Positions 10,188 through 36,211 of a DNA stretch of 36,211 nt are shown piece after piece. The DNA comes from a virus. The position numbers and the translations under genes are program-made. Position 1 is the first letter of the stretch, and each line of letters starts with the position of its first letter. Under the pieces are notes generated by a model. It saw only the letters and a program-made list of their open reading frames with translations. It was not told the DNA's origin and did not search any database. The stretch lies in the IMG/VR virus record IMGVR_UViG_3300009177_000024; one strand, given 5' to 3'.

Positions 10188-11072
10188 ATGAGCACTATGG
10201 AACAACCTGGCAATGAGCAGGATTCCGACGTAGCAGACCAAACTGCCACCGAGGAACAGGAGGCAGTTGTCAACCAAGACGACGCAGAAACTACCGATCC
10301 GGACTCGCAAGAGCAAACCGGTGACGAAGAAGAAGCGGATATCGAAATCGACGGCAAGACGTTCACGATGCCGAAGAACGCGGCTGAGAAACTGAAGTCC
10401 GAGCGCATGTTTCATGCTGACTACACCCGCAAAACGCAGGAAGTCGCAGAAGAACGTCGCACCCTCGCAGCAGAACGCGAGCAGCATCAAAAAGTCATCG
10501 AAGACACCAAGGCCCTGAACGCTGAACTGGTCAAAGTTGCCGCAATTGACAACCAATTGGCCGAGTACAAAAAGCTGGATTGGCAGAAATTGGCCGAAGA
10601 TGACCCAGTCATGGCGCAGAAGTTGAGTCTGCAACGTCAGCAGCTGGAGGAAGTACGAAACGAAGCACAGCAGGTCGTAGCACAGAAGCAAGAGCAGCGC
10701 GCTCTGGCCGAGCAGCAGGAAACTGCCAAGCAACTCCAGGAAGCCGAGGCGTACTTGCAGCAACACATCAACGGCTGGTCCCAGGAACGCGCCAACCAGA
10801 TCAATGACTATGCCCGTAGTTCCGGCATTGCCATGGACCCGGCGATGGCACGCGCCATTATCAAGAACCCAGCGCTGTTTGTCCTGATGGACAAGGCGCA
10901 GAAGTTCGACCAGCTGGCAGCAAAACAGGGTGGCAAGCCGCAGCCTCAGCCAGCAGCAAAACCCGTCACTCGCATCAGCTCTAGCCGCCCTGCGGCAAAG
11001 GTTGATCCGAGCAAGATGGGTACTGACGATTGGATGAAGCAGCGCAATGCCCAGCTGCGCAAGCAACGATAG
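10188..11072 (+). CDS. scaffolding protein candidate
   Basis: Acidic, Q/E/A-rich, coiled-coil-like 294-aa protein between the portal and capsid genes. Confidence 0.7.
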   Translation: MSTMEQPGNEQDSDVADQTATEEQEAVVNQDDAETTDPDSQEQTGDEEEADIEIDGKTFTMPKNAAEKLKSERMFHADYTRKTQEVAEERRTLAAEREQHQKVIEDTKALNAELVKVAAIDNQLAEYKKLDWQKLAEDDPVMAQKLSLQRQQLEEVRNEAQQVVAQKQEQRALAEQQETAKQLQEAEAYLQQHINGWSQERANQINDYARSSGIAMDPAMARAIIKNPALFVLMDKAQKFDQLAAKQGGKPQPQPAAKPVTRISSSRPAAKVDPSKMGTDDWMKQRNAQLRKQR

Positions 11073-11091
11073 GCACCTTAAACAAAACCTG

Positions 11092-11120
11092 GCCCGCTTC
11101 GGCGGGTTTTCTTTTTTCTG
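11092..11120 (+). terminator. Weak intrinsic terminator or stabiliser hairpin upstream of the capsid gene
   Basis: CCCGC-TTCG-GCGGG stem-loop followed by TTTTCTTTTTT. Confidence 0.5.
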
Positions 11121-11129
11121 GAGATTCAA

Positions 11130-11226
11130 ATGCCAAATACCATCCTCACCCCGAACATCATCACGCGTGAAGCGCTGCGCATTCTGCACCAGAAGTGCAA
11201 CTTCATCGGTTCCATTAACCGTCAGT
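11130..11226 (+). CDS. major capsid protein, exon 1 (32 codons plus 1 nt)
   Basis: GGAG lies 7 nt upstream of the ATG. MPNTILTPNIITREALRILHQKCNFIGSINRQ matches the N-terminus of P22-coat-family proteins. The frame stops right after nt 11226. Confidence 0.8.
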
Positions 11227-11982
11227 AAACACACCGTCTAGCTGACATTAAACTCCGTTAATTGCTGGAAACCCCTTAGAGCCTGGGAAACCACAGCGTG
11301 GCTGGAAACGGCGAGCGCGAAGGTTTGAAAATTCACAGGATTGGGCAATCAGCAGCAAAGCTTCTTGCCTCGATAAATCGTGGTATGATGAATGTTCAAC
11401 GACTAACCGAAAGGCGTACACCCAAGCGGGTGGAAATGCGGAGCCAAACATGCCAAAGAAACGCGATTTAAAGGAACGATTTCACGAAAAAGTAGCTGTC
11501 GCAGAATCTGGTTGCCACGAATGGCAAGGATGCGTAATGAAAAACGGATACGGCCAGATCAACAATGAAGGAAAAGCGGCATATGCGCATCGAGTGGCAT
11601 ATGAACTTGAGAATGGTCTTCTTCCGAAAGGATCATTCGTCCTTCATTCCTGCGATAACAGGAAATGTGTTAATCCCGCGCATCTGTTCGCCGGGACATT
11701 TCAGGACAACATGGACGATATGGTGAGCAAGCTTCGGCAGCCTCACGGTATGAAAAACGGCCATGCGAAGCTAAGCGATGAACAAGTGAAAGAAATCCGG
11801 TCTGCTACTGGTACTCACCGAGAAATAGCAGCAAGATTCAGCGTTTCGCAACCATTGGTAAGCATGATCCGGTCTGGCCGGATCTGGAAGCATGTTTGAG
11901 AAGAGATAGTCTGTTCTGCATCGAAAGATGCAGCTGCTGAAAAGCGGGTATGTGAGTAGCGCCACATGCTGAACACCAAAAG
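11227..11982 (+). mobile_element. Group I-type intron (756 nt) with an internal HNH homing-endonuclease ORF
   Basis: The 5' exon ends in U, which forms a G.U pair in a 6-bp P1 (11221-11226 with 11241-11246). The last intron nucleotide is G. Joining the exons restores one frame and a Tyr codon. GAAA-capped hairpin at 11916-11933. Confidence 0.75.
11450..11899 (+). CDS. HNH homing endonuclease (HNH_3-type with C-terminal HTH-like tail)
   Basis: Motifs CHEWQG..NGYG...AHRVAYEL..G.....VLHSCDNRKCVNPAHLF.GT...N..D. Own GGAG Shine-Dalgarno sequence. Confidence 0.9.
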   Translation: MPKKRDLKERFHEKVAVAESGCHEWQGCVMKNGYGQINNEGKAAYAHRVAYELENGLLPKGSFVLHSCDNRKCVNPAHLFAGTFQDNMDDMVSKLRQPHGMKNGHAKLSDEQVKEIRSATGTHREIAARFSVSQPLVSMIRSGRIWKHV

Positions 11983-13082
11983 ATGACGACCGTTTCGCCA
12001 AGGAAGGCGCGCGCATCGGTACTGACCTGCGTATCCGTCTGCCGAACGAATACACCGTTCGTACCGGCGCCGTGATGTCCCCGCAGGACACGACCGAACT
12101 GAGCACTACCCTGACTGTGGCAACGCAGAAGGGCGTTGACTTGTCCTTCACTGCTGTTGATCTGACCATGTCCTTGGACGACTTCAGCAAGCGCATCATC
12201 GATCCGGCTGTGTCAGTCCTGGCTGCGAACATCGAGGCTGACGCCCTGAGCATGGTCAACGATGTGTACCAGACCGTGAACAACATCGGTTCGGCGATCA
12301 ACATGCGCCAGATGCTGCTGGCCAAGAAGCTGCTGACCGACGCCTTGGCACCGAACTCGCCGCGTACCCTGCTGATGAATACTCAGGATACCGTCGATGC
12401 CGTCGATAGCCTGAAAGGTCTGTTCCAGGACTCTACGCAGATCGCTAAGCAGTACCGCGATGGCGTGATGGGCACCACCGCAGGCTTCGGTGACATCATG
12501 GAGAACACGCTGCTGGGTAACACCACCACTGGCACTTCGGCATCCGTCACCGGCTATACCGTGAATGGCGCCGTGACCGCAAACGGCTCGACCAGCGTCA
12601 CTGTGGCGGCTGGTGCTAACACCTTCAAGAAAGGTGACGTGTTCACTGTGGCTGGTTGCAACCGCGTGCATCCTGAAACCAAGGTCGATACCGGTGTGCT
12701 TCAACAGTTCGTCGTGACCGCTGACTATGCTGGTGGCGCTGGTTCGCTGAGCTTCGCTCCTGCGATCTACACCACTACTGGCCGTCAGAACGTCACCGCA
12801 GGCGGTATGCCGAACGGTGCTGCGATCACCAAGGTAGGCGGTGCTTCGCAGATCTACAAGCCTTCCCTGGCGTACCACGAAGATGCCTTCACCTTCGCAT
12901 CCGCCGACCTTGTCATGCCCGACGGCGTGGACTGGAAAGCGCGTGAAACCTACGATGGCATCAGCATGCGCATGATCCGTCAATACGACATCGTGAACGA
13001 CAAGTTCCTTTGCCGTATCGACGTTCTGTATGGCTACAAGACCATCCGCGCGCAGCTGGCAGCTCGCATCCTGAGCAACTAA
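11983..13082 (+). CDS. major capsid protein, exon 2 (the spliced product is 398 aa)
   Basis: The frame is open from 11973 with no start before an internal GTG at 12072. ...DDRFAKEGARIGTDLRIRLPNEYTVRTG... continues the coat-family alignment. Confidence 0.85.
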
Positions 13083-35935: not shown

Positions 35936-36211
35936 ATGCGGCCAAGTGAGTTCAAGCCCATGAAGCCAGCGCCAAAGATCCGATCCAAAAAGTGCAAGGT
36001 CTGCCGGGAATATTTCACTCCGCGCTCCAGCTTTCATAAAGCGTGCGGCCCTGAATGCGCACAGGAATATGTAAAGCAGGAGAAGGCAAAGAAAGACCGC
36101 CAGGAGCGCCAGAAAGGGCTACAGGCGCTTAAAACGAAGCGAGACTATATCGCTGATGCCCAACGTGAATTTAATCGCGCTGTGCGCCTTCGGGATCAAT
36201 TAGCAGGCCAT
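35936..36211 (+). CDS. ninG: NinG/Rap-family endonuclease, N-terminal part (continues at nt 124 of the window after removal of the terminal duplicate)
   Basis: MRPSEFKPMKPAPKIRSKKCKVCREYFTPRSSFHKACGPECAQEY... carries the NinG zinc-ribbon-like N-terminus. The frame is continuous with 1..447 through the repeat. Confidence 0.85.
   Translation, partial: MRPSEFKPMKPAPKIRSKKCKVCREYFTPRSSFHKACGPECAQEYVKQEKAKKDRQERQKGLQALKTKRDYIADAQREFNRAVRLRDQLAGH
36089..36211. repeat. Terminal direct repeat, identical to 1..123
   Basis: Exact identity to the window start. Confidence 0.95.

Follow-up and report, generated by a model that had tools for sequence, protein, structure and literature searches.

The introns of the td, nrdB and nrdD (sunY) genes of phage T4 belong to subgroup IA2, they contain the P7.1 and P7.2 helices, and they carry in a peripheral loop an open reading frame (ORF) for an endonuclease, the translation signals of which are buried in RNA structure; these ORFs are of the GIY-YIG or His-Cys box type and are found in P6 or P9. 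The DNA polymerase introns of the Bacillus phages SPO1 and SP82 reportedly encode the HNH nicking endonucleases I-HmuI and I-HmuII, which nick one strand. It is well known that group I introns can reside in essential phage genes, and cases in capsid genes are also documented (PMC3706429): splicing of the major capsid intron of mycobacteriophage LittleE was shown by reverse transcription polymerase chain reaction (RT-PCR) and N-terminal sequencing (Pope et al. 2013), and, according to the same source, the lactococcal phage Tuc2009 has a group I intron in its capsid gene. Metatranscriptomes also confirmed that gut jumbo phages have introns in core genes, the terminase gene among them (PMC12363816). 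In this article we analyse a viral DNA of 36,211 nucleotides (nt), the IMG/VR record IMGVR_UViG_3300009177_000024, referred to below as the window, in which the sole coat gene of a phage with P22-type coat protein very probably carries a mobile group I intron (11227-11982) in codon 33.

Results

The coat gene of the window is interrupted close to its 5' end. Its first part opens at ATG 11130 and runs through 32 sense codons up to 11225, and because the next in-frame triplet, a UAA, spans the 5' splice site, the unspliced RNA gives only a peptide of 32 amino acids (aa). An in-frame stop was present 0-5 codons from the splice site in all 22 aligned relatives. On the 3' side of the insert the capsid frame is open from 11973, directly after TGA 11970-11972, to its end at 13082, and the first start codon in this reopened frame is GTG 12072, with none between 11973 and that position. 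Junction of U11226 with A11983 yields the codons CAG-UAU-GAC, in which Tyr33 is rebuilt across the junction; the two exons (97 + 1100 nt) add up to 1197 nt, that is 398 codons and a stop, and neither of them contains a frameshift or a stop in the coat frame.

The spliced product of 398 aa matched the Pfam family PF11651 (P22_CoatProtein) in one stretch with 129.2 bits (cutoff 24), covering residues 1-393 and profile positions 1-418 of 423. A search of the protein collection returned more than 100 uninterrupted coat homologues of 394-399 aa with 73-85% identity and 100% coverage, and tblastn against GenBank phages gave full-length, single-piece matches to annotated coat proteins. The alignment of 119 homologues has no gap around the junction, where Gln32 is conserved in 97, Tyr33 in 116 and Asp34 in all 119 sequences. 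The N-termini of the homologues are strongly conserved over residues 1-63, and of the first 34 columns of the alignment 22 do not vary. The AlphaFold2 model of one coat homologue (P0001, built with 31 close homologues) had a mean predicted local distance difference test score of 44, too poor for fold comparison.

The original prediction, which was made from the letters of the sequence, had described the 32-codon ORF with a Shine-Dalgarno sequence and an immediate stop, the reopening of the capsid frame at 11973 with GTG 12072 as first start, and a continuous 398-aa product of P22 coat type. All these elements were recovered (Shine-Dalgarno sequence GGAG at 11121-11124, ATG at 11130, TAA at 11226-11228; Table 1), the lengths of the exons add up as proposed, and the alignment to the coat profile runs unbroken through residue 33. 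The proposed comparison with intron-less relatives showed that many of them exist, that they possess the N-terminal 32 residues together with the junction Tyr, and that none of them starts near residue 35.

The ends of the window, 1-123 and 36089-36211, are an exact direct repeat of 123 bp, which makes the window a complete phage genome, either circularly assembled or terminally redundant, with 36,088 bp of unique sequence. No second coat gene was found in the whole window. Since the genome is complete and has only one coat gene, the phage would depend on splicing for its capsids, where splicing itself is deduced from membership in the intron family.

The Rfam group I intron model RF00028 matched 11169-11933 over its full length (model positions 1-253) with 69.4 bits against a gathering score of 50 (E 8.5e-16), and it was the only Rfam family that reached its gathering score in the whole window. 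The Rfam alignment displays the classic P, Q, R and S elements (AAUUGCUGGAAAC, AAUCAGCAGC, GUUCAACGACUA and AGAGAUAGUCU, respectively), and its large insertion in the P8 loop coincides with an ORF for an HNH endonuclease. The insertion site lies between bases 1 and 2 of codon 33, and the G+C content of the intron is 48% compared to 58% in the exons. The placement of P1/P2 by the Rfam model in exon 1 (from 11169 onward) was discarded; those helices are mismatched, and the P1 defined by the guide sequence was preferred.

This P1 consists of 6 bp and was invariant, with the U.G wobble, in 22 of 22 aligned introns (alignment A1, composed of 22 diverse introns from the same site with the ORF trimmed). 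P10 has 4 bp in the window. A core of 3 bp is retained by every one of the 22 introns, and in locus L005 one pair has changed from G-C to A-U by compensation. No P2 could be found between P1 and P3 in this alignment. Moving both splice sites one base downstream leaves the mRNA unchanged, and U11226 and G11982 were chosen because of the group I rules, according to which U precedes the cut and G ends the intron.

RNAalifold predicted 78 pairs on alignment A1, 43 of them with compensatory changes. The structure scored on the same alignment included P1, P3, P4, P5, the P5 extension, P6/P6a, P7 (pseudoknot), P7.1, P7.2, P9, P9.1, P9.2 and P10. With these pairings 95.7% of the cells were paired, versus 28-43% when the 3' partners were slid by 1-3 columns, and compensatory changes were seen in 43 pairs (233 cells) versus 14-21 pairs (28-45 cells) in the slid controls; none of 500 shuffles matched the observed values. 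P3, P5, P6 and P8 all show compensatory changes, which are numerous in the helices of the P5 extension. P8 was out of register in A1 and was examined separately; in nearly all relatives in which it could be located it is a covarying stem of 6-10 bp. Of the 80 consensus pairs 77 are canonical in the window, where every core helix that was counted (P1, P3-P7, P9) is intact, and the ORF-trimmed intron has a folding z-score of -2.6. From established knowledge on group I introns, the G11401-C11911 pair beside the bulge of P7 presumably constitutes the guanosine-binding site. The P7.1/P7.2 helices are said to define subgroup IA, and their location between P7 and the 3' strand of P3 points to this subgroup, while the missing P2 is unusual for IA2 phage introns.

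The ORF in the P8 loop matched the Pfam family PF13392 (HNH_3) at residues 45-88 with 48.3 bits (cutoff 24.8), it also matched the His-Me finger model of Pfam below the cutoff, and several HNH endonuclease families of PHROGs, the best with an E value of 1.9e-33. Residues H47, H66, C68, D69, N70, C73, N75 and H78 are the same in all of six intron-borne homologues with 60-71% identity, and the ORF of the window is of full length and has all the residues that are invariant among its relatives. Its frame differs from that of exon 1. The ribosome-binding site coincides with the 3' strand of P3, the start codon (AUG 11450) and the stop codon (UGA 11897) fall in opposite strands of P8, and an AUG or GUG start is located in the 5' strand of P8 in nearly all relatives in which P8 could be located. 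The folded ribozyme would hide the translation signals of the endonuclease, and a ribosome bound to these signals would disrupt the core; since the ribosome-binding site is in P3 and the start and stop are in the P8 stem, translation of the endonuclease and folding of the ribozyme are expected to be mutually exclusive.

In most relatives (L003, L048, L062 and others) the frame of the HNH ORF is open upstream through the ribozyme core, resulting in an ORF of 600 nt with an AUG near intron nucleotide 56, and the Q element is translated in it as ...IGQSAAK.... In the window the homologous upstream frame (11298-11471) and the HNH ORF do not share a reading frame. The extension in the relatives is probably a lack of stop codons rather than a longer protein.

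The interpretation of the insert as a 756-nt group I-type intron with an HNH gene in the major capsid gene agreed with the RF00028 match above the gathering score, obtained with the Rfam search that the original prediction had suggested. The proposed P1 (11221-11226/11241-11246), the terminal G11982 and the GAAA-capped hairpin at 11916-11933 were all present at the predicted positions, the foldable P3-P9 core was found and is backed by covariation, and the HNH ORF was confirmed as a free-standing ORF with its own Shine-Dalgarno sequence (GGAG, 11440-11443). As for P10, the partner GACG at 11985-11988 stood, and the guide CGUC had to be corrected from 11236-11239 to 11235-11238.

Relatives of the intron were searched for in IMG/VR by a DNA pattern composed of the 5' splice site and the guide sequence (CGTCAGT, 8-12 nt, TCTAGCTGAC), which was found in 67 contigs. 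Both splice sites were placed by script in 57 of these, and in 4 more via other loci; two matches run off the ends of their loci, and four (L043, L056, L083 and L101) were rejected as chance matches in which the intron core is missing. The resolved loci all give ...RQ-Y-D...; in the 57 loci a G acceptor restores this coat frame, and as only G positions were tried, this is consistent with the terminal G and is not an independent test of it. Altogether the same intron is widespread among related environmental phages and is present in the same codon in about 60 IMG/VR contigs, in coat genes whose products are 39-94% identical to that of the window. A search with the HNH protein led to seven loci with an endonuclease 60-70% identical and an insert at the same coat position, where the coats are 39-63% identical; six of the seven are above the Rfam group I gathering score and L006 is below. 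The Rfam scores of the relatives are 56.7-83.3 bits. There are 42 distinct intron sequences, and the ORF-bearing introns are 684-764 nt, the ORF-less ones (L049, L068 and L103) 309-347 nt long.

A sister phage of 96% identity, represented by contig IMGVR_UViG_3300010397_000102 (L068/L108), shares 95-98% identity with the window in exons and flanking genes. Its intron equals that of the window at 344 of 347 positions and has a clean internal deletion of 409 nt in the HNH ORF, of which three codons at the start and about twelve at the end remain; this state is a loss of the endonuclease and not a gain. Within the set of the 80 coat loci nearest to the window, interrupted genes were seen only in L108, L137, L150 and perhaps L143, which is cut at the contig end. 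The intron-less alleles mostly read AAC CGC CAG T/AC GAC GAC at the insertion site (slash), and some are identical to the joined exons of the window around it. An endonuclease-less sister and mostly intron-less close relatives are hallmarks of a homing element; one fixed site, sporadic presence and endonuclease-less derivatives, by which a mobile intron is recognised, were all found among the homologous coat genes. In representative genomes the splice-site pattern gave 43 matches, none with the intron core, so the intron was not found in their prophages.

Three other contigs, 3300015263_000079 (L071), 3300009868_000430 (L084) and 3300012964_000248 (L087), have the same site and guide and carry in P6 an unrelated ORF of 131-177 aa. 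In these introns P8 is reduced to a short hairpin, and in L071 and L084 the P3/P4 sequences differ as well. The alternative ORFs had no match in the Pfam search; a CxxC...DHxxN...CxxC pattern was recognized in them by eye only. It appears that different endonucleases invaded one lineage of introns independently of each other.

Table 1. Positions of the coat gene, the intron elements and the neighbouring genes in the window
Feature	Position	Strand	Basis
Large terminase	5799-7172		gene-order listing
Portal	7173-9293		gene-order listing
Collagen-repeat protein, 282 aa	9303-10151		between portal and scaffold, inside head module
Scaffold	10188-11072		directly before coat gene in gene order
Coat gene Shine-Dalgarno sequence GGAG	11121-11124	+	sequence; 5 nt 5' of ATG 11130
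Coat exon 1, 32 codons and U of codon 33	11130-11226	+	residues 1-32 align to N-termini of >100 uninterrupted homologues
P1, GUCAGU 11221-11226/GCUGAC 11241-11246, U11226.G11241 wobble at 5' splice site	11221-11246	+	sequence; 22 aligned introns
In-frame UAA across 5' splice site, T11226 its first base	11226-11228	+	sequence
Group I intron, 756 nt, last base G11982	11227-11982	+	Rfam RF00028; protein collinearity; 57 IMG/VR loci with both splice sites
P10 guide CGUC, partner GACG 11985-11988 (exon 2)	11235-11238	+	22-intron alignment
P3 5' strand CUCCGU, partner 11438-11443	11253-11258	+	two pairs with compensatory C-G to U-A changes
P4 11263-11268/11349-11354; P5 11273-11275/11343-11345; P5a-c extension 11282-11339	11263-11354	+	alignment A1
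P6/P6a	11355-11395	+	compensated C-G to A-U change in P6 of the window lineage (11357/11393)
P7 5' strand A(C)GACUA, bulged C11400, partner UAGUCU 11907-11912, pseudoknot with P3	11399-11405	+	six pairs formed, invariant in 22/22
P7.1 (11406-11415) and P7.2 (11419-11432) hairpins between P7 and P3 3' strand	11406-11432	+	compensatory changes in 6/6 counted pairs
P3 3' strand GCGGAG, holding HNH ribosome-binding site GGAG 11440-11443	11438-11443	+	sequence; A1 structure
P8 5' strand CAAACAUGC, holding HNH AUG 11450-11452; partner GCAUGUUUG 11890-11898	11445-11453	+	sequence; separate P8 analysis
HNH homing endonuclease gene, 149 aa, filling P8 loop; UGA 11897-11899 overlaps P8 3' strand	11450-11899	+	Pfam HNH_3; PHROGs
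P7 3' strand UAGUCU	11907-11912	+	alignment A1
P9 hairpin, 7 bp, GAAA loop	11916-11933	+	compensatory changes in 6/7 pairs; Rfam
P9.1 (11935-11946) and P9.2 (11947-11970)	11935-11970	+	compensatory changes in 8/8 P9.2 pairs
Coat exon 2, AU of codon 33, codons 34-398, stop	11983-13082	+	sequence; Pfam; homologue alignment

Regarding the genome context, the public gene calls of an identical contig (ENA ERZ27252350, k141_3952409; L231) contain a P22_CoatProtein of 335 aa and an HNH_3 protein of 120 aa, and exon 1 is not among them. The 282-aa protein encoded between portal and scaffold has a signal-peptide-like N-terminus and long Gly-X-Y repeats, and it matched Collagen of Pfam (on the public contig) and tail-fibre families of PHROGs. 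Between the scaffold stop (11072) and the ribosome-binding site of the coat gene there is a terminator-like hairpin at 11091-11117 (GGCCCGC-TTCG-GCGGGTT, 7 pairs) followed by a T-run, which is unexpected directly 5' of the most highly expressed late gene. A betaproteobacterial host is suggested by the genomes (Variovorax, Massilia, Cupriavidus and Methylotenera) in which the uninterrupted coat homologues are named.

Discussion

The results can be combined in a model of the life of this element. In the late transcript the intron would fold as a ribozyme with P1, P3-P9 and P7.1/P7.2, without P2. Free guanosine would attack after U11226, which would be held in P1 via the U.G wobble, then P10 (CGUC/GACG) would align exon 2 while the terminal G11982 enters the guanosine site of P7, and the ligated exons would read CAG-UAU-GAC in an mRNA encoding the 398-aa coat protein. 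During co-infection the HNH enzyme might cut or nick intron-less coat alleles at the conserved site ...AAC CGN CAG T/AY GAC GA... (N-R-Q-Y-D-D).

Three other explanations for the interrupted gene had to be weighed. The insert could be the decayed, non-splicing remnant of an intron, which would make the coat gene a pseudogene in a defective or non-viable assembled genome. The three mismatched pairs, the A in place of the usual G at 11406, the G in place of U at 11905 and the unproven viability of a genome assembled from a metagenome would be in line with this, but the core helices are all intact and the mismatches are peripheral, the 11905 variant is shared with L006, L103 and L104, the exons, without frameshift or stop, are 73-85% identical to intact homologues, and the HNH ORF of full length keeps every residue that is invariant in its relatives. 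Moreover, purifying selection is indicated, since the sister genome keeps the intron at 344 of 347 positions; a decayed intron is thus regarded as quite improbable.

It is even harder to accept that the gene was split by a free-standing HNH cassette without any intron, with the capsid built from a 335/336-aa product starting at GTG 12072. A ribozyme is evident from the Rfam match and the covariation, the reopened capsid frame offers no start between 11973 and 12072, residues 1-63 are strongly conserved by the homologues, and exon 1, which the relatives conserve, is preceded by a ribosome-binding site of its own, even if the public calls contain the 335-aa coat and the 120-aa HNH_3 protein without exon 1 and the splitting of phage genes by free-standing endonucleases is established knowledge. 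For an intein, a programmed frameshift site or an assembly artefact only the bare fact of an interrupted gene speaks, and we assign to them practically no weight: the intein is excluded by the in-frame UAA at the junction and by the HNH ORF lying in another frame with its own ribosome-binding site, the 756-nt insert is too long for a frameshift to bypass, and an artefact would not recur as the same insert in about 60 independent assemblies.

It should be emphasized that several points also weigh against a mobile, splicing group I intron in the coat gene. Splicing and its efficiency are inferred, and the cleavage activity and the target of the HNH protein are likewise predicted. Part of the structure had been deduced from the very alignment used for scoring, and this gives it an advantage over the slid controls. 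P1 and P7 are invariant and give no covariation signal at all, P4 being invariant as well, and the invariance of P1 was partly forced by the retrieval pattern, which demanded P1; it is likewise present in loci L003-L009, which were fetched via the HNH protein instead of the pattern. The three non-canonical pairs of the window fall in peripheral helices (P5a, P6a and the base of P7.1, in the last case an A.C mismatch). Solved structures searched with the HNH protein, either as a single sequence or as a profile of six sequences, gave nothing significant, the weak matches being the His-Me motif of I-PpoI (E 0.7) and a helix-turn-helix (E 0.4, residues 106-144). Finally, the identity of the intron core and that of the coat are positively correlated (Spearman 0.58, with the coat identity calculated ungapped and underestimated where indels occur). 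Because of this correlation the distribution of the intron appears to have a large vertical component, and vertical inheritance with loss, rather than frequent lateral homing, could explain much of it.

The mobile group I intron in the sole coat gene is nevertheless the explanation that we hold with high confidence. Going beyond this locus, one may speculate that the element represents an undescribed, widespread group I lineage specialised to codon 33 (N-R-Q-Y-D-D) of the P22-type coat genes of environmental podophages, with ongoing turnover of its endonuclease (HNH_3 in P8, an unrelated HNH-like protein in P6, or no ORF), and that during co-infection the endonuclease might be used as a weapon that cuts the coat gene of competitors without the intron. 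This wider picture is rather doubtful at present; an intron endonuclease, gp210 of phage PhiPA3, was shown to be such a weapon (PMC11620839).

The findings overturn nothing in the current understanding of phage introns, and no report of this intron family in P22-type coat genes was found in the literature, as covered by an incomplete search. In practical terms automated annotation shortens the coat protein to 335 aa and overlooks exon 1 both in the window genome and in the relatives, therefore capsid phylogenies and protein catalogues of this clade are wrong unless the intron is modelled. The approximately 60 introns at the same site, which are endonuclease-positive, endonuclease-deleted or endonuclease-swapped, cover the stages of gain, decay and loss of a homing element in an essential late gene. 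The ribosome-binding site in P3 and the start codon in P8 would make the locus a clean case of very high coat expression set against expression of a selfish gene.

Among the closest described systems are introns of capsid genes. LittleE and the window phage are both tailed phages in which the only gene for the capsid subunit, a highly expressed one, contains an intron of the self-splicing type, with splicing predicted in the window; the last base is U in both 5' exons and G in both introns, each intron contains an endonuclease gene, and close relatives lack the intron. LittleE differs in being a siphovirus of a high-G+C Gram-positive host with another capsid family, whereas the host of the window phage is probably a proteobacterium. 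Its endonuclease is LAGLIDADG-like and encoded on the opposite strand, while that of the window is an HNH protein encoded on the same strand in P8, and the type of the LittleE intron was assigned only tentatively, in contrast to the score of the window intron above the Rfam gathering threshold. Tuc2009, likewise with a group I intron in a capsid gene, is a siphovirus of a low-G+C Gram-positive host.

Within GenBank phages the closest ribozyme core belongs to Pseudomonas phage PAP02 (MT080102.1), with 80.7% identity over 108 nt to 11250-11362 of the window. That intron is about 260 nt long, it has no ORF, and it resides in the RNA polymerase gene in another splice-site context. It is located between two coding sequence fragments named 'RNA polymerase large subunit' (L002 2457-2720; MT080102.1 ~71567-71830) and has an Rfam score of 91.4 bits; the stretch matching the window core (71611-71718) bears no annotated feature. 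Another P22-type coat gene, that of Podoviridae sp. ctn9Y15 (MW202674.1; L001 1756-2029), is split at about residues 85/88 by approximately 270 nt containing a 39-aa 'hypothetical protein'. This insert had no Rfam match even at E 1, and it could be an undetected intron, another kind of insert or an assembly error.

As regards the endonuclease, the introns of SPO1 and SP82 are similar to that of the window in being phage group I introns with a homing enzyme of the HNH family, but their host gene codes for DNA polymerase instead of coat. No similarity of the window HNH protein to I-HmuI was detected in the solved-structure searches; it has a short HNH_3 core and a tail that weakly resembles a helix-turn-helix, as mentioned above. 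The T4 introns and the window intron share the P7.1/P7.2 helices, the endonuclease ORF in a peripheral loop and the location of its translation signals in RNA structure. The T4 introns, however, possess P2 and interrupt genes of nucleotide metabolism, while the intron of the window is devoid of P2 and is inserted in a coat gene.

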